Part shown: in pieces, positions 43,854-56,181 of the stretch
How the letters are laid out: each line of letters opens with the position of its first letter
Position numbering within the stretch: position 1 is the stretch's first letter
Source: Trichodelitschia bisporula
Taxonomy: Eukaryota
Assembly (NCBI GenBank): GCA_010356995.1
Contig: ML996694.1
Span: 743,224-807,223, forward strand
Direction: 5' to 3'
Length of the DNA stretch: 64,000 bases
The notes under the pieces: model-generated
Seen by the model: only the letters and a program-made list of their open reading frames with translations
The model's database searches: none
What the model was told of the DNA's origin: nothing
Program-made: the position numbers and the translations under genes

Positions 43854-45035
43854 ATGCCTGCTGCTACCGAAGACCTCGGCTCTCCGCCGACGACGATAAA
43901 CCCCTACCATGTGCTGGACCTGTCCAAAGACGCGACAGAAGACCAGATCAAGACGGCCTACCGCAAAGCTGCGCTCCGCAACCACCCAGGTACACATAGC
44001 CTTCCCCTCTCTCCCTTCCCTCACTAACACAACATAGACAAGGTCCCCGAGTCTGAGAAAGAAGCCGCACACACCGCCTTCCAAGAAATCGCCTTCGCCT
44101 ACGCCGTGCTCTCCGACTCACGTCGTCGCGCGCGGTACGACGCCACAGGCCGCACAGTGGAGGTACTCAGTCTCGACGATGAAGACGGCGAGTTCAACTG
44201 GGCAGACTTTTTCCGCGCGCAGTTCGCCGAGATCATTACCCCGGATGTGATCGAGCGGTTTAAGAAGGAATACCAGGGGAGCGAGGAGGAGAAGCTCGCG
44301 GTCATTGAGGCGTATGTCCTCGGCGAGGGAGATATGGAGGCTGTGTTTGAGGGCGTGATGCTTAGCGATCCCATTGTGGATGAGGAGCGGTTCCGCGGGA
44401 TCATCGACGCTGAGATCGAAGCCAAGCGTGTTGAAGCTTACGACGCTTACGCTAAGGAGAGCAAGAAGAAGCGGGCGAAGCGCGTGGCGAATGCGAAGAA
44501 GGAGGCTAAAGAAGCAGAGGAGATGGCGCGGGAGTTGGGTGTTGCAGACAAGCTTTACGGTAATGGGACGAAGAAGGGCAAAAAGGGCGAACCGGATATG
44601 GATGGCCTCGCGGCGATCATTCAGCAACGCCAGCAAGAGCGCGCCGGCAACTTCCTCGCCGATCTGGAGGCCAAGTACGCACCGAAGAAGCGGGGCACGA
44701 AGCGCGCTGCCGACGAGTTCGATGAGGACGCGAAGCCGAAGCGCCAGCGGGGGAAGAAGCAGGCTACGGTTGAGGAGTCGGATGACGCCATGGAGGATCC
44801 CGAGGAGGAGGAAGTCAAGATCGCGAAGCGGCCCAAGGCGAAGCCTCGGAAGCGCCTGGCTAAGAAGTTGCCTAAGCTCGACGAGGTCGCGGAGGAAGAC
44901 GAGAATGAGGTGACTGAAAATAAGGCCGAGAAGACTGTAAAGCGGAAGTCCAAGGGCACCACGGATGCTGATCTCGAGGCCGAGGCTGAGAAATCTGCTC
45001 CGACTCCGCGGCGGTCGAAGCGGACGAGGCGGTAG
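43854..45035 (+). CDS. J-domain protein, DNAJC9-like
   Basis: Intron 43990-44037 restores HPD (NPYHVL...AYRKAALRNHPDK). Also RRARYDATG, YQGSEEEK and FLADLEAKY, with a basic/acidic tail. Confidence 0.93.
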
Positions 45036-45460: not shown

Positions 45461-46242
45461 ATGCCCAACCCAACCAACGCCCAATATGCCATGACCGGCC
45501 ACCCCCCAAAAACCCCCCTCTACCCCGCCTACACCTTCCGCGCCTCCCCAACTTACTTCGCCTGGGTCCGGCTCCCGGCCACCGATATCCATACACTAAG
45601 GCGCGAGCCCGGCTTTGAAGGTACGTGCGGGGAACCCAGGTTCAACTCTGCTAACGCCCGCTAGGCCAGAATATCTACTTCTACCTCAACCACCCGATTC
45701 GGTTCATTTGTATTACAGCCCCGGTTGTTGCTATTGAGGACCTGTTTTCCCGGTTCGTGCTGCTTACCCTCGATGATGGGAGTGGTGCTACGGTCGCGGT
45801 TAAGATTGAGAGAAAGACAAAGGAGCGTCCGGTGGGAGAATGGGGCGGCGTGGCGAGGGAGGCGCTGCCGGAGACAGTTGTCGAGGGGGTGAGGGTCAAG
45901 GCGGGCAGAGGCGCATTTGAAGTGTTTGTGGAGGGAGTGAGGGTGGATATAGGGACGGTGCTCAAGGTCAAAGGCGTGGTGGAGACGTGGCGGGATCAGC
46001 GGCAAATGCTTGCGAAGAGGATTGTGCTCGCAAGGGGCATGACGGAGGTACTCGAGTGGGAAGAGTTGGCAAGGTGGAGAGGGATTGTAGGGCAGCCGTG
46101 GGTGCTGAGTCAGGAGCGGGTAAGGGAGTTGGATGCGGAGGAGAGGAGGTGGATCGAGGAGAAGAGGAGGAAGAGGGAGGAGAAGAGGGCGATGCAGGAG
46201 AAGCATGAGCGGAAGAGGAGGAAGTTGGAACGCAATGTATAA
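45461..46242 (+). CDS. STN1: CST complex subunit Stn1 (OB fold)
   Basis: Intron 45621-45664 gives LYPAYTFRASPTY...GFEGQNIYFYLNHPIRF...LDDGSGAT...GTVLKVKG. The start could be 45461 or 45490. Confidence 0.88.
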
Positions 46243-48321
46243 GGAGAGTGCGTTGGTTTAGGCGTGACTTTTGATACCCGGCGGGCTTTTGATTTGGGCG
46301 CAGGGGGGGCAGTTGGGTTTCTATGTCTGCAATGGGATCATGTCGGAGTCTTGCTGTCTACTGGTACTGCTATGGTGAGCCACGATGAGATGCTGGCATT
46401 CATCAGGATATCTGGGAATATACTTCTGTTGATTAACGACTGGGAACTGTATCAAGGGCAAGAGCATTTGCAAACAGGCTACAGGTGCACCAGATCGTCC
46501 CTCGGCGTCCCCTGAAGCACCTGGCATTTCCTTGATATCACACTTGTCGCTGTGCGTTTGTCATTAAGCGAACTTCTAGCTAGAGAATTCAGTCCGACAC
46601 CCAAGTTTCCATAGTCTGAGTATAGAGAACCGGCTCCCAAACTCCAGCAAGTGATATCCAGCGGGCGCTCCCCTGCCCCTCAAAAATAAATATCGGCTCG
46701 TCAATCCCTCTCCATATCCATATCTTCACCGTTATGTGGGTTAGTCCTAAGGTCCCAATCACAACGACATTACCCTTGCGATCTCCACGAGTTAGAGCAC
46801 CTGCGCCACAGACGCCGGTATTTGAGAGAGAATTCATTGCCCGTTCCCAGCATGTTGCGGGTATGTGCGCCGCAAAGCCACCAGAAAACCGTCGCTTCAG
46901 AAGACAGCTCTTCCGGGCGATGCCGTTATCTATGCTCTCAACGGCGACGCCAAACGCTGCTCTCAATGCGAGAAGAAGAAACCGTCATCCATGCCACCAG
47001 GCTCTTCAGTCTGTCGACACGCTTCTCGGCCTGTTTGGCCACATCACTTTGGTCGACTGCTTTATTGACGGCGCGCCAGGCACCAGCTACACACTGTTAG
47101 ATACAAACTCTTTAACACTGTGTAGGTGGTGCCTGGCGTAACGCGAACAAAGCAATATACCAGCGCGAAGAGGCCGAGCATGCTGAGAAGCATCGCCGGA
47201 CTAGGGAGGACGAGCATGAACCAGAGACCGGCACCATCGTTAGCTCGAGCGGCTGGAAGAGACGGCGTATAAAGGGATCAAACAAAGAGCGTTCCTAGAA
47301 GAGTACATAATAGTTTAAACATAACTGCGCGTTTGCAGATCGAGGGCTTGCCGGCCACTAGTTGACGGAGGAGGCTGTCGGTATCCCTCCTCGGCAATGA
47401 GCCGCCTGATCCCGGCAGTTGATGATGTTCTCGGTTCTCCACGAGGCACTGCTGAGATGGAAATGACTTGGCGCTGCGAGACGAGGCATGGTAGATTAAG
47501 AGAGCGAAGAGTCATAGACTTGTGGTAAGACAGTAAGGAATCTATTTAAGAATTTGCTCTTTCCTGTGGGCGTCTGCCATACCTAGGTGCGCGGAGCTGA
47601 AACTTCCGATCTGGTCCATTATCCGTTATTATGACGTCTCCCAAGATCCCTCCGAATGCTAACAGCTCTACTAACCATTGCCTCACTCCTCAGTCTACTC
47701 GAACCGCGGCCCTCCCCGCCATTCCTATGTCTACAACAACTGTATGTCGGCAGTGCGGGTGCTGCTCTTGGGACGCAGTTATGTGTAGCTATGGCGACGT
47801 GGTGGCTACTCGGCATGCAAGGTTCGAAGCCAAGCTGCAACCCTAACCCACAGGAACTCAAACCTAACCTCGCCTCAACTCCTCTCAACCACTTCCGCAC
47901 GTCCATATGGTCTACACTCAGCTGTATCAGCTATGACTTGATTGAAAAGTACATGGTGAGACAAAGGCGCGGTTGATGGCGAACCAATGCATCAGCTGCA
48001 CGGCATTCAGTGTGTAAGCAGCACGATTGAGTCTCCGCTCCCAAGTTTTTGAACCGGTCAGTTAATTGGCCATCTAGCCACAGCGAAGACATTCTGATTT
48101 GCAGAAGCCCGAACGCCAATTACTCCCAGATGGTAATGTCATCTCCCCAATTAGATCTCCAACATCGAGCTGGTCATCCAAGGGACACTGTCCAGTCGTG
48201 GCCTGTGGCTCCCTCCGCTGTAACTGTAGCGGACTCCTAATTCTTCGTTAGTTGTATCCCTGCCTAGCATATATAACTCACCAGGTAGAAGTTTCCGGCA
48301 CCGCCAGATATCCGGTTTCTC

Positions 48322-48792
48322 TTATTCCAGGATGGAGCGCACCATTCTCAGCAGTTCAACATTCTGAAGGACTGGGACCCCAAGGACCTCGTGCCAGTCG
48401 CGCTTCAGTACCGGATGAATAGGGCTGTTGCAAGGGACGAAGGCCACCGAGACGAGGGTGGAGCCGCGGTCGTTGCTAAGTATGAACTTGTTTCCGCTCT
48501 GCCTGCTATTCTCGTGCACCACGGTGTACTTCTCTGGGAAGGTGGCTATCAGGTGTTGGATGGTTTCGGCCGGCGTGTCCGTCATGATGACGATATGGAT
48601 ATCCGTGATGGTTCCATGTGCATGCTTCATCATAGCCAGCGCGAGGTGACCAGCGACCACTACCGGGACGCGGAGGCTCTCGAAGTCGTTGACAACATCG
48701 CTTGCGTGGAAGACGAACTCCATCATCGGTTCGATGTACTTGAGTTTCGATATGAGAGTCGTCAGGTCAATGTACGTCCGCAGATACCCCAT
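48322..48792 (-). CDS. Putative nucleotidyltransferase-fold protein, paralog A
   Basis: First ATG at 48792. Motifs VVVAGHLAL...TITDIHIV and EVLGVPVL..ELL align by eye with paralogs B and C. The 3' end may be spliced and is not resolved. Confidence 0.6.
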   Translation of the reverse strand: MGYLRTYIDLTTLISKLKYIEPMMEFVFHASDVVNDFESLRVPVVVAGHLALAMMKHAHGTITDIHIVIMTDTPAETIQHLIATFPEKYTVVHENSRQSGNKFILSNDRGSTLVSVAFVPCNSPIHPVLKRDWHEVLGVPVLQNVELLRMVRSILE

Positions 48793-49448
48793 TGTGGTGA
48801 TTGGGGACCGTCGAGGGCGCGGGGCTTGTGAATGAAGAAGGTCGTTCAGAGAAAACGTGGTCGAGGGCAATACTGAGGAATGCGGGCACTGTTTGGAGCG
48901 GCTGTTATGGTGAGAAAAGAACCTTGTCGATCATAAACACGGGTCAGAGCTTGCTAACTTGACGTGCCCAGCCAGTGTCTTTACAAGTGTGTTGTCTGTT
49001 GAGTGGAGTGCCAGTGATCGGACGGAACCACCATTCTTCCACCACAGCAGTATATCCGTCGGCTTCCATGCCGCCGAGAACAAGCCCGCGCACATATTCT
49101 ATACCCTGTCGACAGCGAGTACTTTGGCGGACCCACTGATTTCAGCCACCATTCCTGCGGGTTGAAATATCGGCAGGACGTGGTTTCGCACAAAATCACC
49201 CCTTCGTCTACGACACAATCACCTCCCCCATATCTCCTTTGAATCTGGGGTCGCAATTTCCTCACGAGCTGAAGCCAAAATACTGGCATCAGTCTTTTAT
49301 AAGGTATTAAGTAAGACAGTTTCCTCTCCGTCCCCTGACTTCAACGCCTTTAAAGAATTTGATTGCAGTGCAGCACTTACCCTGCTTCACAGTAATATAT
49401 GCGTCTCATTTCGTTTTCGAGAAACGTCACAATTCACTTTATACTGGG

Positions 49449-49553
49449 TCTACAGTGTGCAATACTAAGTTCAGAGTGGCCAACACTGAGTCCGTAGTGA
49501 GGAACAGTTATTTCACTGTGAGGAACAGTAAGCTCACTATTCATAAATACACT
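49449..49553. repeat. 21-bp imperfect tandem array, about 5 units
   Basis: tctacagtgtgcaatactaag / ttcagagtggccaacactgag / tccgtagtgaggaacagttat / ttcactgtgaggaacagtaag / ctcactattcataaatacact. Confidence 0.8.
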
Positions 49554-49665
49554 AGGTTCAAACACGACAGCTCAGCTCCTCCTCACCTGGAACACCTCCT
49601 TATCTCGAACGCCTCCTCATCTCGAACGCCTTCTCTCCTCGACATCCACTCTGAAAATCTTCATC

Positions 49666-50466
49666 ATGTCGGATGCTAGCGATAACTCTTCTCCCCAAGG
49701 CGGTGAGTTCTCGCCCAGGGGCCTCTTTTCTCTCTCGCCTGAAGAGCACTTTCTCCGCCTGAGCAACGCCGTTGAGGATGCCAAGCCGGTGCTTGAGCGG
49801 GTTCACCGGGCCTCCACAGCCATCGAACACCTCCGCGAGCTCGGCATCTCTGCCGCACTTGGGGGATATCTGGCCGTGCACCGCTACATCAAGTTTCCGG
49901 AGATTACGGACGCGAGGATGGGCACAACCACCTGGCTCATCATGTGGGCCGACGATCATGCGCAAGCCATTATTAGCCGCCTCGTGGACCTCTATCCGGG
50001 AATCTATACTGCACAGAGTCCGAGTTTTTTCATGGCTATCGACGACAAGGGCAGCTCGGAGATGTTGCTTGTACGCGCGGGGCCGCGCTCGGCGCTTTCG
50101 TGGCTGAGGTTTGAACCGACAGAGGTTGTCTGCGCGCAGGAAGTCCCCACGCTATCTCTCACACGCCTGTTGGTTTGGCAGTTCAGCCAGATCATCAGTC
50201 GCCGTGACCGCTACGAAGCATCGCCCGATGGCTTCGCTAATTGCTTCCATGTTCAGTGTATGGACTCGATCGCCGAGTACATGTGCAACAACGGCATTGA
50301 GTGCGACCCGGGCAACGACGAATTCTGGACGTTGAGCGGCCAGGTGCAAAAGATCCTTCCCCAGCCTGCTGCGGAAAGTCTGCGAGAATTGGAGAGCCTT
50401 TGGTCGCTGAGCATGTCGTTCAGCGGAAGCATCTGCTGCTGCCTTAGTTTTACTCGTCTAAGCTGA
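49666..50466 (+). CDS. Putative nucleotidyltransferase-fold protein, paralog B
   Basis: 266-aa ORF with IEHLRELGISAALGGYLAVH and EVPTLSLTRLLV, clearly similar to paralog C. The C-terminus may be spliced. Confidence 0.7.
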   Translation: MSDASDNSSPQGGEFSPRGLFSLSPEEHFLRLSNAVEDAKPVLERVHRASTAIEHLRELGISAALGGYLAVHRYIKFPEITDARMGTTTWLIMWADDHAQAIISRLVDLYPGIYTAQSPSFFMAIDDKGSSEMLLVRAGPRSALSWLRFEPTEVVCAQEVPTLSLTRLLVWQFSQIISRRDRYEASPDGFANCFHVQCMDSIAEYMCNNGIECDPGNDEFWTLSGQVQKILPQPAAESLRELESLWSLSMSFSGSICCCLSFTRLS

Positions 50467-51165
50467 TGTCTTGAGTCTTGCATGCCAAACTTCTCACGAA
50501 GGTCATTTCTGGGCGAGAAAGAACAGCTGCAGGTCCAAGTGAACTCAGAGGAATGAGCGGTATCAAAGCAGGAACCTGAGCGCCAGGGGAACGACGTCAC
50601 CATCTACTTTGGCTGTCAACAAAATGTATATTGTGGAATCTGGACTATTTGAATGAAACGCACAACTGTCAAAATGCTTATCCAAACGTGACGTGTCATT
50701 AATATCATATCATGACTTCCAGGCTTCTGTCCCAAGTTACTGCCAAAGCCACTCCAATGTCAATGTAGCCCACCGTCATGAGTCAATGTTCAGGAAGCGC
50801 CATCTTCGGGTTTATAGATCGCCGCTTATGTCAGCCTTCTTGGTAAGGACTATGGGCCCAATTCGCGCCTTCCTCCGTCCCACGGGTCCTAACCGATGCA
50901 AGGATGGCAGTGATCTTGCTACCCTGGGCAGGAGCGGATTGACAGCCAGAAGCCGATGGCGAAGGATTACGGACAGAAGTCACGCGGATTCGGCATCACT
51001 GCAAAATCTATATCCTTTCGGATTAAGAGAGATGCAAGAGCGGGCCCTTTTCGCATCTTCATAGCCTCAATCCGTTGTAGGCTTCATTAAACTCTACGTA
51101 TGAACCATTGCCGGTGCAAAGCCGCTCAGAAACAGGTGCACCAGACATCCAATTTGCTCCCCACC

Positions 51166-52145
51166 CTAAGCCCCATTCCCATTGCGCCGCGGCAGGTGAT
51201 CCTCACAGTACCGGATATCAATATAGGCTTGATCATCAGTGGCATTAAGCTCATTCGGACCCGTCGAAGGCTGGTGCGCGGCCGGCCCCGGAGTAGTCTG
51301 CAAACCTAAAGAGTTAGCTCGCGCCTGAAGGTATGACAAAAGTACGTACATTGAGCCGGATCATCGTCTACGAAGGGAACCCCGATGGAAGTGAAGTGCG
51401 CTAGAGCGCTCCGCCCCATCCTCTCCCCCAGGCGTTTGGCGGCAGTGGGCAAAGGGACATCATGGTCGTACATAATGTCGCGGCGCTTCATATAGGCGAT
51501 AATGCTCAAGATGTCCATAAACAGCCTCTTCCAGCGGGGCTTTCGGTCGTCTGTGGGGGCGGCCCGGGGGTCGTCTCGCTCGAAGATCTCGCGGGATTGG
51601 GTCGCGAAGCAGCTCATCTTTCCAACCAAGAGACGGGTCACCGATAGAATTGGAATGCCGTAGATCTCCTTGAGCTCGTTGTAGTCGAACTGGAGGTACT
51701 CTAAGTACGAGGACGGACCGGAACGCTTAATGACGATCCACGCCGTAAATGTACCGGAGAAGTAGCCTAGACCCCTCATTCCAGCGGGTCTGTAGGTATA
51801 TGGATGCGCGGTCATGAGACGTTGCACAATGGATGGGAGCTCGTGCGGCTGGAGGAAGGCGACGAGCTCAATGAGGTGCGGGTGTACGGCAGACGGCTTT
51901 GGATACCGGATGTGCAGATGTACGGCGAGCCATCCCGCAAGCGCACACTTCACGCCCAAGGCGTCTAGATGCTCAATCACGGTCGCCGAGTGATGTATGA
52001 GCTCGGAGACTGGCTTCATGTCTTCCAGCGCTTTGATGAGGCGCTCCGCACTGAGAGATGAGGGTCCATCCACGCGATGTGGTGTGGGGTCGACAGCGTC
52101 CGGTGTGCTTTCCTCTGTGGAGATGTAACTCGAGCTGGCCGCCAT
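51166..52145 (-). CDS. Putative nucleotidyltransferase-fold protein, paralog C
   Basis: 279-aa ORF, plus intron 51306-51349 (gtacgt...gctaac...tag) splicing in frame into the 51166 ORF. Motifs IEHLDALGVKCALAGWLAVH and EIYGIPILSVTRLLVGK. Confidence 0.72.
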
Positions 52146-53856
52146 GGCTGCGAGACGTTAGAGAAGTGCAGTAGAAATGTAAAGAGCTGTGAGCAGTTGA
52201 AATATTGCGTGGGTTCAATGGGTTGCGCAAGCGTGGAGATTGGAGATATGGTTTAGCCGACGGGGAAGCCGAAGGGAGTTGACGAGAAAGCGTTGGGTGC
52301 TTTGGAAAGAACAAACGTGGTACCCAATTGCAGACTTACATCCGGGCACACTGCCGAAGCAAATCGTACACGAAACCCGACCAAAGCTTTCTGTGATCTT
52401 GGCGTTTAACTAGTATATACTCAAGCGTCGCTGCGCTCTACTTAATCAGGACCAGTGCGATGAAGCGGCGTCATCGGTGCCTTGCGCTTTGAGTAATGGA
52501 GGAACAGAATATCTGGAACTGTCAAGCATATGTCGGGGTGAATAAATCGAGAAGTGGTTTGAGAGAGCTTTGAATCATAACCTCATTTTCGAAGGAGATG
52601 GTTGAATGTAAGGGTTCTTTGAGGGCATGTGTGTGGGTAGCGAAGGGCCACGAGTTATAACGGAGATGGGGATTCCGTTCAGTGATGCCTTTCCCGACAC
52701 TCCGACTTCTGGCACCATTGACTAGGGTGGCGGACTTTCCACGTGTTCACATATATGAAGATGAGGTGATCATCTGGTTGCAAACGAAGAAACGCTTGTG
52801 TAGTAGATAGGCCCAGGGACAGGTTTTCGAAGTTTCTACAGTTTCAGCCAGTCACAACCTCAGCCTTGTGCCAAGATTCCAGATAGGCAAGGCTATCTTG
52901 CAGATTTCTGGGGCTTCTAGTTCTACTAAACGCATGGGGACGAATCACCTCAAGATCTTAGATACCGCTCACGAAGTGCATTTGGATGCAGAAGGGTTCT
53001 GGAACCCCCAACATTCAAAATACTTGGTCATTTTTCATGTCACCCAGCGTCGTCAATGTTGCGTCGCTCTATCCGCGGCCAAACTGGGGATATTCTGGCA
53101 GGCCTCCTCTGCCTCTGCTCAAGCAATTGGCATTGCCTCTGGCGCAGCACACCTCATGCAACTGGCAGTACGCAGATCCACGACCGCCCACCATCGGAGC
53201 AAGCCCTTCAACAAGTCTAGGCGACATCACTCACACACGGAACTCAGCTTATGATCAGTGGAATTCATTCGTCATCCATATCCATGCACACTAATTAGAC
53301 AACCATGTCAAAATCCAGTGCCCACACCGCATCAGTATCAGCTTCACACACCGACACTTCATAACATGGGAAAAACCTAGTCCATAGCCCACATAACAGA
53401 GACATGGCCAACCGTTGCCGCCATGCTCCCGGTATATTCCCTTTGATGTCCGTCACCTCGTTGTCCGTCCTCCATATCCCCGTAAAGAAAACCGTGATTG
53501 AGGCAGAAAAAAGATGTCGTGGTATCAAGCAGCAGAAACACAAGGTGCAAGGGATGAGGGGTAATGACTGTCAGGGGGGAAGGTGGGGAGGTGTAGAGAG
53601 GTATGGGAAGAGGGGAAGGTGTGGAGAGGTGTGGGGTAGGGGAGAAAGAGGTGGGGGGGTGGGGGAATTTGGGGCTATGTACATTCAGAGAGCAAGACCG
53701 ACGACAGGCAGGCAATCGACCGCACTGCCATCAACCGCACAACCCCGACAAATCAACTTTTGAGGATCCCGGTCAGACCTTCCGCAACTCCGGTAACGCC
53801 GATTCCCAACCCAGTGCCAGAGAGCACGACGCCAGTCGAGAGCCCTAGCCAGAGCT

Positions 53857-56181
53857 CTAAGCCTCAGTCTTCTCGGCTTCGCCAGAGGTACCGTTCTTGC
53901 CATCATCACCTTCTTTGGTCTTGACGTACTCATCGTAAACATTTAGCGCCTCTTGGACCTTCATTTGCAGAGCATTATCATCGGAGATGCTACTCATCAT
54001 TAGTATGTGATGTAACTGCTGCTGGGTGTGGACTTACAGGTTGAGCAACTCGGAATTCTCCATTTCGAGAAGCATACCGGTGATCTTACCAGCAAGCTCT
54101 GGCTGCCGCTCCTGGATCTTGGGGTACAGCGCCTCACCAAGCATCTGCTTCTGCTGATGCGCCGGCGCGGCGTTGAGCGCAGCGATATCAATCCCGCCCG
54201 AACCGGGGAGCGGCTGGCCGGGAACCGGAGGACGGCTACCGAAGGCAGGAGCCTGGCCGGGACGACCAGGAGTAGTGCCACGGCCGCCCTGAGGAGGACC
54301 GGCGCGCATCTGAGGCATGGGCATCTGACCGGGGACGGGGATGGGCATCATGGGAGCCCGACCACCACCGCGACCACCGGCCATCTGAGCTTGAGCCTGA
54401 GCCTGGGCCTGGGCTGCGAGCTGGAGGTACGCGGGGTTGTAACCAGCGAAGCCAGGCATGTTCGGCGGCATGCCGTACATCGGGGGAAGCGCCTGAGCGC
54501 CGGGAGCGCCACGGCCACCCTGCTGAGGAGGCAAGCCACTGGGGAATCCACGGCCGGCCTGAGCGTTGGGCATGGCGGCCGGGAAGGGCATCGGAGCGCC
54601 ACGACCAGGGATGAAGCCACCAGGCTGACCCGGGGGGAAGTACATATTAGGCTGCATGAATGGCTGCTGCGGCATAGAGCCAAGAGCAGCGGCCTGCTGA
54701 ATGCGCATCTGGTTGCGCGCATGAATGGTGGCCTCAAGCTGGGACTTGCGGACTTCTTTACGCTGGGCTAGAGCGACGTAAAGCGGCTTGCTGTCAAGCA
54801 TTTTTTGGTTCATCTCGGTGACCGCCTTGGTCGCCTCGTCGGGGTTGCTGAAGCAGACGAAGCCGAAGCCCTTGCTCTTTCCGAGAATCTTCTTCTCGCC
54901 CTTGATTGTGACCTTGTCTTCATCAGAAGACTCTTTGGCCTCCGTAGTATCCTTGATGTCCTTGGCGTCCTTGGACTCCTCGCTATCCTCCTTGGACTCC
55001 TTGCCCTCCTCGGTCTTGACCTCATCCTTCGCAGGGGACTCGGGACGAGCGGGGGTGGTGTCACGCATCACCTTCGCCGAAGTGATGTTGCCAAAAGGAG
55101 CGAACATCTCGCGGAGCTTCTCGTCGTCCACGTCATCCGCCAGATTCTTGACGTACAAGTTGACGCCCTGGTACTTGGTCTGCTTTTCAATGCGAGCAGC
55201 CTCGTACTGCTTGCGCAGCTCCTCCTCGCGCTCGTGCTTCTTCTGGGCGCGACCGACGTACAGCTTCTGGCCGTGAAATTCAGAGTCGTTAAGGGTGTCC
55301 ACAGCACGAGCAGCGTCCTCGTGCTTAACGAAGTTCACAAACCCAAAGCCACGGTGCTTGTTGGTCTCATTGTCAATGGCAAGAGACGCCGAGGTGATTG
55401 GGCCGTACTGCTCGAACAGCTTGCGGAATTCATCCTCTGTAACTTCCTGCTCGACATTCTTGACATAAACGTTGGTGAAGTTGGCCTTCATCTCCTCGAA
55501 CTTCGACATGCGGTCCTTCTTCGGGATGTGGTGACCAACGTACACCTTCTTCTCATTCAGAAGCATGCCATTAACGTGCTTGATGGCGTTATTGGCAGCC
55601 TCGGCCGTCTCGTAGTGAACGAAGCCGTAGCCCTTGGAGTTGCCCATGTCGTCTTGCGCGACCTTGCAGCTCAGGATATTGCCGAAGGCGGCGAAAGTAT
55701 CGTGGAGAGCCTTATTGTCGATGGCGGTATCAAGGTTCTTGATGAACACGTTGCCTTGGCCAGTCTTGCGCAAAGCGGGATCACGCTGAGACCACATGAT
55801 GCGGCACGGTTTGCCCTTGATCAGGGTGTAGTTGAGCTCCTCGAGTGCCTTTTCGCCATCCTCAGAGCTGTTGAAATTGACGTAGGCGTAACCAAGCGAG
55901 CGACGCGTGACAGCATCGCGGCAGACACGGATCGAAGCCACCTGGCCGATGGACGAGAAAAGTTCGAAGAGCATGGCCTCGGTGACCGACTGATCCAGCT
56001 CGCCAACGTAGAGGGAAGCCGAGTTCTGGTGAGCGTTGGAAGGCGCAGCGGAAGTCGGGGTGGGAGCATCCCCAGCAACGCTCGAGGCGGCAGGGACTGA
56101 GGTGTTGACAGTGGTGCCGTTCGGGGCGTCGGCGGCGGGGGCAGCCACGTCGGCGGCAGGAGCAACCGGAGTGTCAGACAT
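53857..56181 (-). CDS. PAB1: Poly(A)-binding protein
   Basis: Four RRMs ([33 protein letters not shown]), a Pro/Gln linker and the MLLE domain ([13 protein letters not shown]...[11 protein letters not shown]). Intron at 53990-54037. Confidence 0.99.

Follow-up and report, generated by a model that had tools for sequence, protein, structure and literature searches.

The closest described relatives of the genes considered here are nucleotidyltransferases (NTases) of the DUF1814 superfamily, among them AbiEii from Streptococcus agalactiae and MenT1 (Rv0078A), MenT3, and MenT4 from Mycobacterium tuberculosis. The fold is familiar above all from such bacterial tRNA-modifying toxins, whose AbiE/MenAT toxin-antitoxin systems have an operon with an adjacent antitoxin gene (COG5340 AbiEi/MenA type) and inhibit growth by transferring nucleotides to tRNA 3' ends. 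Motifs I to IV of DUF1814 proteins, as laid out in Dy 2014 (PMC3985639), read hG[G/S]x15DhD with an internal Arg, KLxAaxxR, and +DxxD, and the same paper reports that AbiEii toxicity is abolished by each of the substitutions G49A, D67A/E, D69A/E, K173A, R180A, and D192A. MenT3 toxicity is abolished by D80A, K189A, and D211A (Cai 2020, PMC7450476), and the third catalytic carboxylate of MenT3/TglT is, going by the titles of PDB entries, E146 on a later strand. Fungi have been reported to carry DUF1814 NTases (Dy 2014, PMC3985639; Arrowsmith 2024), with the fungal homologues described in Dy 2014 as lacking linked antitoxins, and Pb27, an NTase-like antigen of Paracoccidioides brasiliensis that provides the one fungal structure (PDB 5UVD), is assigned to the DUF1814 superfamily in a preprint (bioRxiv 10.64898/2026.01.19.700257). 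We found no eukaryotic function of DUF1814 NTases in the literature examined, and no paper among the matches listed dealt with DUF1814 pseudoenzymes of fungi or, for Trichodelitschia, with the present family. MiD51 and NF45/NF90 are catalytically inactive NTase-fold proteins; they belong to another branch of the superfamily, carry other accessory domains, and resemble the proteins described below in the core only.

Three paralogs between STN1 and PAB1

The window, by which we mean the whole 64,000-nucleotide stretch of the Trichodelitschia bisporula genome under analysis, contains three open reading frames (ORFs P0001, P0002, and P0003; Table 1) whose coordinates and shared sequence blocks, the latter letter for letter in the translations, are as an earlier note on this DNA had given them. 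Their location between STN1 and PAB1 is borne out by the Pfam domains of the flanking genes. The same note called the ORFs unannotated, which they are not: the exact sequences of P0001 and P0002, together with a two-exon model of the P0003 gene (P0004), are already deposited in NCBI/UniRef, all as hypothetical proteins of T. bisporula. A family HMM run against 1,885 six-frame peptides from the whole window matched P0001, P0002, and P0003 alone, with no fourth, intact copy, and among ORFs of at least 80 aa in the Stn1-PAB1 interval the three paralogs are the only family members. Neither the antisense ORF overlapping P0001 nor an ORF at 52934-53254 has a Pfam match, and we observed no repeats or transposon traces that would explain the duplication, the only repeats being a single 28-nt pair and an imperfect inverted repeat of 79 nt.

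GC3 lies at 0.69 to 0.74 in the three copies, compared with 0.72 to 0.75 in PAB1, Stn1, and DNAJC9 (P0001, 0.739; PAB1, 0.728), and the antisense ORF of P0001 shows the mirror image of this pattern (GC3, 0.54; GC1, 0.73). Such coding-type GC3 in the claimed frames is evidence that the ORFs are real genes.

Table 1. Features of the Stn1-PAB1 interval (window coordinates)
Feature	Position	Strand	Remarks
Stn1 flank	45655-46242		Pfam Stn1, E 3.5e-9
Spliced transcript(s)	47923..50637	+	antisense through the whole P0001 ORF, on into P0002
Transcript exons	47923-48013, 48078-48131, 48251-48908, 48971-49310, 49393-50486	+	another contig reaches 50637
P0001	48322-48792	-	156-aa ORF
Antisense ORF	48415-48831	opposite to P0001	overlaps P0001
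P0002	49666-50466	+	266-aa ORF
P0003	51306-52145	-	279-aa ORF, unspliced version
P0004	51251..52145	-	deposited 280-aa two-exon model of the P0003 gene
P0004 exon 1	52145-51350	-	
P0004 intron	51349-51298	-	
P0004 exon 2	51297-51251	-	
5'-leader intron of P0003 gene	52148..52339	-	ends 2 nt before the ATG
PAB1 flank	54034-56181		Pfam RRM domains and MLLE

Homology and rarity of the family

The three ORFs are homologous at the sequence level. P0002 and P0003 align with 69 of 223 residues identical (BLASTP, E 1e-25), and P0001 is weakly similar to P0003 in pairwise comparison (E 4e-5) and not significantly to P0002 (E 4.5); its membership is established through an outside relative, P0006 (E 3e-12, 39% over 64 aa). 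Profile comparison with hhalign gives the same picture, with P0001 matching the outside-relative profile at 95.9% probability (E 6.4e-9) and that profile matching the P0002 plus P0004 profile at 98.2% (E 3.8e-14).

The family is very small: when 1,835,955,588 protein representatives were searched exhaustively, six matches came back at E<=1e-3, namely, the two queries, one repeat protein treated as spurious, and three relatives, so that only three other clusters are found among 1.84 billion proteins. We observed no orthologue in other named genomes among 5.8 billion clusters or these 1.84 billion representatives, and no further T. bisporula copies in the protein searches. Scans of contigs, which detect close relatives only, confirmed none of the pattern matches obtained from metagenomes (593 with alignment A4 and 98 with P0005) or from prokaryotic genomes (83 with P0006). 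The outside relatives apparently come from intron-bearing eukaryotes.

Family libraries do not reach these proteins: none of the six scanned has a significant family in Pfam, PADLOC, or NCBIfam, and, unlike MenT/AbiEii proteins, the three window proteins have no match to PF08843 (AbiEii) at E<=10, nor do P0005, P0006, and P0008. What we observe below threshold are hints of NTase-clan Pfam families (MdcG, 0.065 to 0.078; Aminoglyc_resit, 0.092; DUF6932, 0.15) and an AbiEi match of P0005 in PADLOC (E 0.034). In the tree, the three window copies are grouped against three outside relatives (support 83/92) on long branches of 1.2 to 2 changes per site, the window paralogs being saturated at 31% identity. 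The earlier note's proposal of a local, fast-evolving expansion, here also lineage-restricted, is thus upheld by tree support, branch lengths, and rarity.

Predicted fold

Structural models point to a MenT/AbiEii-type fold within the Pol-beta nucleotidyltransferase superfamily, as the earlier note had suggested from the sequence. The top structural matches of the window proteins are MenT1, Pb27, MenT3, ANT(2'')-Ia, JHP933, and LnuA, and in the ESM Atlas the independent model of P0004 lies nearest to a fungal cluster automatically named 'AbiEii toxin domain-containing' (TM 0.63/0.77), with P0002 nearest to a fungal AbiEii-like cluster of the same name (TM 0.62/0.72). The likeness to Pb27 is structural, sequence similarity being undetectable in a search of PDB sequences with the family profile, which returned just three unrelated matches (E 0.96 to 1.9). 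The C-terminal antitoxicity domain of AbiEi (PDB 6Y8Q) scores below the toxins, and the N-terminal wHTH domain of AbiEi is absent from the window proteins.

The models, built from very shallow alignments (6 to 7 sequences), have mean pLDDT values of 69 to 72, with the NTase fold still confidently predicted in the core. They show the bi-lobed DUF1814/AbiEii-MenT arrangement of an N-terminal Pol-beta-like alpha/beta lobe and a C-terminal helical lobe, with both lobes predicted in P0002 and P0003/P0004 and the N-terminal NTase-like lobe alone in P0001. The AF2 model of P0001 (pLDDT 72.3) has five Foldseek matches at E<=1e-3, which are Pb27 and four MenT1 chains, and no relic of a C-lobe is seen downstream of this ORF (47300-48420; best E 1.1 among 56 peptides).

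Loss of the catalytic motifs

The outside relatives P0005, P0006, P0009, and P0010 carry GS, a 14- to 15-residue spacer containing R, D[IL]D, and K[LM]SAxxTR, in agreement with DUF1814 motifs I to IV, the spacer being of the long, AbiEii-like kind. DxxD is present in P0006 (QDRKD) and P0009 (QDKND); P0005 reads DKAN (KDKAN), and intron read-through truncates P0010.

The window copies, in contrast, appear to have lost this signature, judging from a 7-sequence alignment at about 25 to 30% identity read together with AF2 secondary structure. Motifs I and II, which would take the form hG[G/S]-x(9-15)-DhD with an internal Arg, read AGW-x18-LIE in P0003/P0004, GGY-x18-TTT in P0002, and AGH-x14-DIH in P0001, so that G/S of motif I is replaced by W, Y, or H and DhD is missing from each; the DxD strand described in the earlier note is thus absent, its place being taken by LIE, TTT, and DIH. 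At the position of the third carboxylate, three of the four outside sequences (P0005, P0009, P0010) align an E and the fourth, P0006, a Q, compared with V in P0004, L in P0002, and S in P0001. For motif III, K[LM]SA(C/A)NTR of the outside relatives corresponds to KMSCFATQ in P0004 (K175 kept, A and R lost) and to QFSQIISR in P0002 (K replaced by Q, R kept), and P0001 has no C-lobe; the lysine is thus missing from two of the three copies. The two Asp residues of motif IV are split by an 8-residue insertion in P0004, and P0002 has the second Asp only. Retained residues comprise E93 and K175 in P0004 and the first Asp in P0001. In some pseudoenzymes, catalytic residues have migrated, according to the abstract of PMC10211241.

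Since the motifs are lost in all three copies, we read these proteins as non-catalytic NTase-fold proteins rather than tRNA-modifying toxins. The idea of MenT/AbiEii-like toxins put forward in the earlier note finds no support because every copy has degenerate motifs I and II, with motif III partly kept in one, and even a D-to-E change in motif II is reported in Dy 2014 to abolish AbiEii toxicity (PMC3985639). On that note's allorecognition and antiviral ideas, the analysis turned up no evidence in either direction.

Transcripts and splicing

The X1 and X2 contigs are RNA-like; none of the sequencing runs listed carries an RNA label, and the naming of X1 and X2 as RNA is a guess. We treat them as RNA-derived because of their GT..AG joints and uneven cover. 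The plus-strand transcript (X2 record 8, 2237 nt; X1 records 4 and 5) has five joints, one of them an alternative X1 joint, all of which are GT..AG on the plus strand when intron ends are checked. One exon of this transcript, which is spliced on the strand opposite to P0001, contains that ORF completely. P0002 is covered by the contigs, and the GT..AG joints upstream of it, being on the plus strand, are in sense orientation. For the P0003 gene, a joint that links 52147 to 52340 within a contig (depth 3.3), CT..AC on the plus strand and GT..AG on the minus strand, defines a leader intron that reads GTAAGT...CTCGCAG. The RNA-like contigs thus show sense splicing for both P0002 and P0003; the contigs leave 50689-51939 and 52425-53075 uncovered, with most of P0003 falling in these gaps, and are uninformative on expression there.

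Interpretation of the array

We think it probable that the array is a lineage-specific tandem set of extremely diverged DUF1814 (AbiEii/MenT/Pb27) members that are non-catalytic and not tRNA-modifying toxins. The family has an enzyme ancestry, with the rare outside relatives keeping the full catalytic signature and all three window copies having lost it. P0002 and P0003 would be intact, transcribed, two-lobed pseudoenzymes whose role, if they have one, is most likely the binding of a ligand or partner (a nucleotide, an RNA 3' end, or a protein) without nucleotide transfer, and P0001 would be an N-lobe-only relic that is probably becoming a pseudogene. What the data show directly is homology, rarity, evidence of splicing, and, from alignments and predicted models, the fold and the loss of motifs; that activity has been lost and that any binding takes place are inferences. 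That ORFs of 266 to 280 aa have stayed intact, with a codon bias like that of the host, argues for some function being retained.

The same observations bear on neutral decay, a less likely course in which all three copies are, after a local expansion, functionless relics that are transcribed by chance in an array being lost. Catalytic motifs gone in three different ways, branches as long as those in the tree, and the lack of an orthologue in the other named genomes searched would all fit such a course, as would P0001, truncated, with no C-lobe relic, and enclosed in an exon of a transcript spliced on the opposite strand. It sits poorly, however, with two ORFs still open (266 and 279 to 280 aa), with GC3 equal to that of bona fide neighbours, with sense-strand splicing of P0002 and P0003, and with a core fold that is still confidently predicted.

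Conflict loci typically carry tandem, fast-evolving, lineage-specific paralogs, as this locus does, and for the locus to be active as a toxin/antidote, allorecognition, or antiviral module, at least one copy would have to be a working MenT/AbiEii-like nucleotidyltransferase. We regard such a module as improbable: none of the three copies has an intact motif I/II, and D-to-E alone costs AbiEii its toxicity (PMC3985639); the window holds no fourth, intact copy and the protein searches no further T. bisporula copy; no AbiEi/COG5340-like partner is seen; and fungal DUF1814 genes reportedly lack linked antitoxins (PMC3985639). In further contrast to the MenT/AbiEii systems, the window genes are eukaryotic and contain introns, and no adjacent antitoxin gene was seen in the interval, where two ORFs besides the paralogs were compared with Pfam. 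A toxin role of the window copies is unlikely; more probably they are relatives that are non-catalytic or in decay.

Quite improbable as well is that the dead copies serve as antidotes or decoys against an active DUF1814 enzyme elsewhere (in the genome, a virus, or a mating partner), or that one of them is a toxin with a rewired active site. In the antidote or decoy version, the array would be a domesticated conflict module whose copies act like the AbiEi C-terminal domain, itself an NTase-like antitoxin. That the ORFs are chance or mis-called frames and their similarity an artefact is scarcely credible, for even though Pfam has no matches and P0001 is overlapped by both an antisense ORF and an antisense transcript, artefactual homology is refuted by the E values of 1e-25 between two copies and 3e-12 between P0001 and P0006, a protein of an unrelated sample, and coding-type GC3 in the claimed frames, absent from the antisense ORF, and confident NTase-fold models likewise speak against it.

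Meaning for the family

With these three genes, a known superfamily gains new members that are catalytically degenerate. They provide a genome-anchored case in which the fold has been tandemly duplicated and has diverged past the reach of Pfam, with its signature lost in three ways and two copies open and transcribed, and they illustrate that a structure-first search recovers a family missed by sequence libraries. The locus alone reveals no new mechanism; what it offers is an inexpensive way of testing whether the MenT-like proteins of fungi are enzymes, scaffolds, or debris. Should the antidote/decoy or rewired-toxin reading prove true, a MenT-type fold would for the first time be seen in toxin-antidote or immune service in a eukaryote.

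Locus and gene models

The three ORFs lie between the Stn1-domain gene and PAB1 exactly where the earlier note had placed them. Its description of them as unannotated does not hold: exact P0001 and P0002 sequences are present in NCBI/UniRef, and the third ORF is identical to the Trichodelitschia bisporula deposit EJ06DRAFT_548793 (hypothetical protein, 280 aa; two-exon model, here P0004), so the genes are already annotated as hypothetical. In the flanking sequence, the J-domain start of the DNAJC9-like gene is on a separate exon further upstream, and the arms of the inverted repeat are 75% complementary and spaced by 13 nt.

Positions of genes, transcript features and repeats in the window
Feature	Position	Strand	Remarks
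DNAJC9-like J-protein gene	43900-45035	+	upstream of Stn1; DnaJ + HTH_DNAJC9, E 4e-24
Stn1-domain gene	45655-46242		Pfam E 3.5e-9
Imperfect inverted repeat	47021-47099 / 47113-47191		79-nt arms; Stn1-P0001 intergenic region
Spliced transcript span	47923-50637	+
Exons of 2237-nt contig	47923-48013, 48078-48131, 48251-48908, 48971-49310, 49393-50486	+	four introns
P0001	48322-48792	-	ORF, 156 aa
P0002	49666-50466	+	ORF, 266 aa
P0003	51306-52145	-	ORF, 279 aa
Intron spliced out in P0004	51349-51298		52 nt, GT..AG; gene end 51251
P0003 5'-leader intron	52339-52148	-	192 nt; GT..AG joint in low-depth contig (3.3)
PAB1	54034-56181		other flank of the three-ORF interval

Transcription

The sequencing runs X1 and X2 (one sample) contain roughly half of the words sampled from a 48000-52500 query; their record is silent on RNA origin, and we treated their contigs as RNA-derived because they show intron-like joints and very uneven depth. 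All joints of the 2237-nt contig are GT..AG on the + strand; a sense-spliced transcript, whose long leader includes upstream ORFs, therefore runs across P0002. The entire P0001 ORF sits inside an exon of this RNA, which is spliced on the opposite strand and continues, within a single contig, into the P0002 mRNA; a sense P0001 mRNA may exist as well. X1 depth is about 5x higher over 48251-49310 than over P0002 (116.8 vs 21.8), and the spliced + strand transcript may be a non-coding RNA antisense to P0001, an extended P0002 leader bearing upstream ORFs, or both at once. The low-depth contig spans the P0003 start, with the leader intron ending 2 nt before the ATG. As the exon upstream of this intron ends in ATG, splicing leaves an upstream ATG, out of frame, 3 nt ahead of the main CCATGG start.

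Paralogy and family size

We observe that the ORFs are related paralogs, as had been proposed. P0002 and P0003 share 31% identity across 223 residues (E 1e-25), P0001 is weakly similar to P0003 (E 4e-5), and no similarity was detectable in the pairwise comparison of P0001 with P0002. P0001 is tied in through the outside relative P0006 (E 3e-12, 39% over 64 aa); its top non-self tblastn matches on the window are the other two loci (E 0.004 each). A profile of the outside relatives matched P0001 with 95.9% probability and the P0002+P0004 profile with 98.2% (E 3.8e-14). GC3 in the claimed frames is 0.69-0.74, with codon-position GC like that of PAB1, Stn1 and DNAJC9, and the pattern is mirrored in a long ORF antisense to P0001. 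The family HMM, run on 1885 peptides from six-frame translation of the 64-kb window, matched the three ORFs and no other peptide.

Word-indexed protein searches with P0003 and P0002 returned only the queries, and when the P0004+P0002 profile was run exhaustively with HMMER against 1,835,955,588 representatives, six matches reached E<=1e-3: the two queries, three relatives (P0005, E 4.3e-6; P0006, E 3e-5; P0008, E 7.2e-4) and a 647-aa repeat protein, aligned in seven 29-residue stretches and taken as spurious. A six-sequence profile retrieved only P0005, P0004 and P0008 from the indexed database. The outside relatives come from short contigs in JGI, ENA and Logan records. The genomic P0008 and P0010 abruptly depart after '...GRLL' of block 3, the third segment common to the ORFs, from their cluster-mate P0009 (90% identity) into unrelated sequence; in P0009, a longer transcript-like version, motif III follows this point. 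The departure looks like read-through into an intron, and for this reason the outside relatives are probably eukaryotic. In a tree, a moderately supported split (83/92) sets the window copies apart from three outside relatives, and terminal branches measure 0.6-2 changes per site; the small family and long branches fit the local, fast-evolving expansion suggested earlier.

Predicted fold

No significant match came from sequence searches of Pfam, PADLOC, NCBIfam or the PDB. Every structural model was predicted from a very shallow alignment, and those of P0001 and P0004 have most alignment rows in common. The AlphaFold2 model of P0004, built on the six-sequence alignment (mean pLDDT 68.9; 10-residue blocks at ~70-94 over residues 31-190, except 66 at 81-90), runs helix, strand, helix, strand, helix, strands, two long helices. 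Its six Foldseek matches in the PDB at E<=1e-3 are Pb27 (5UVD, E 2.4e-5), four MenT1 chains and ANT(2'')-Ia; those of the P0001 model (pLDDT 72.3) are Pb27 and MenT1 only. Structural comparison scores of the P0004 model were 15.2 for MenT1 (rmsd 2.7, 166 aligned), 13.0 for Pb27, 10.8 for TglT/MenT3, 10.3 for ANT(2''), 9.6 for AbiEi antitoxin, 9.2 each for H. pylori 4ok0, LnuA and TM1012, 8.3 for MenT4 and 8.2 for TUT1. ESM Atlas models of P0004 and P0002 have as their closest neighbour a cluster from Basidiomycota that bears the automatic name 'AbiEii toxin ... domain-containing' (TM 0.63/0.77 and 0.62/0.72), with PF08843 on 16% of its members. Since a passage of a 2026 preprint (bioRxiv 10.64898/2026.01.19.700257) unites MenT1-4, AbiEii, Pb27, ANT(2'')-Ia and JHP933 in one DUF1814 superfamily, the AbiEii/MenT-type fold proposed earlier is well supported at the level of models.

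Catalytic motifs and interpretation

Passages of Dy 2014 (PMC3985639) give DUF1814 motifs I/II as hG[G/S]-x-DhD (AbiEii spacer of 15 residues with an internal Arg), III as KLxAaxxR, its lysine amid hydrophobic residues, and IV as +DxxD, and report that each of G49A, D67A/E, D69A/E, K173A, R180A and D192A abolishes AbiEii toxicity; a passage of Cai 2020 (PMC7450476) reports likewise for MenT3 D80A, K189A and D211A.

DUF1814 motifs in the outside relatives and the window copies
Sequence	Motif I	Spacer	Motif II	Third carboxylate	Motif III	Motif IV
Outside relatives	GS	14-15, with R	D[IL]D	E in 3/4 sequences; Q in P0006	K[LM]SA(C/A)NTR	DxxD in P0006, P0009
P0004	AGW	18	LIE	V	KMSCFATQ, K retained	8-residue insertion between two Asp
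P0002	GGY	18	TTT	L	Q in place of K	second Asp alone
P0001	AGH	14	DIH	S	without C-lobe	without C-lobe

The DxD strand described in the earlier note is absent from all three copies; its block 2 corresponds to the helix and strand that follow the motif II strand, and its block 3 leads into motif III. A C-lobe relic sought downstream of P0001 was not found. By this motif comparison the family descends from bona fide DUF1814-type enzymes, and the metal- and nucleotide-binding signature has been lost from each window copy in a different manner.

We favour, with moderate confidence, a tandem array, specific to this lineage, of DUF1814-fold proteins that have become catalytically degenerate, in which P0002 and P0003 would be intact, transcribed pseudoenzymes with a role other than nucleotide transfer and P0001 a truncated relic. 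Neutral decay alone, in all three copies, is an unlikely account of the same losses; an active toxin/antidote or immune module, set beside this motif record, is very improbable, and an artefact scarcely credible.

Fungal DUF1814 proteins without linked antitoxins were reported in 2014 (in a passage of Dy 2014, PMC3985639) and again in 2024 (Arrowsmith 2024), and Pb27, a superfamily protein with a solved structure, resembles the modelled window proteins in fold. Among the papers listed by our literature searches, none dealt with the window's own family. Fungal DUF1814 being already known, the window proteins are very diverged, degenerate additions to it, and their family is chiefly useful for testing how MenT-like proteins function in fungi.
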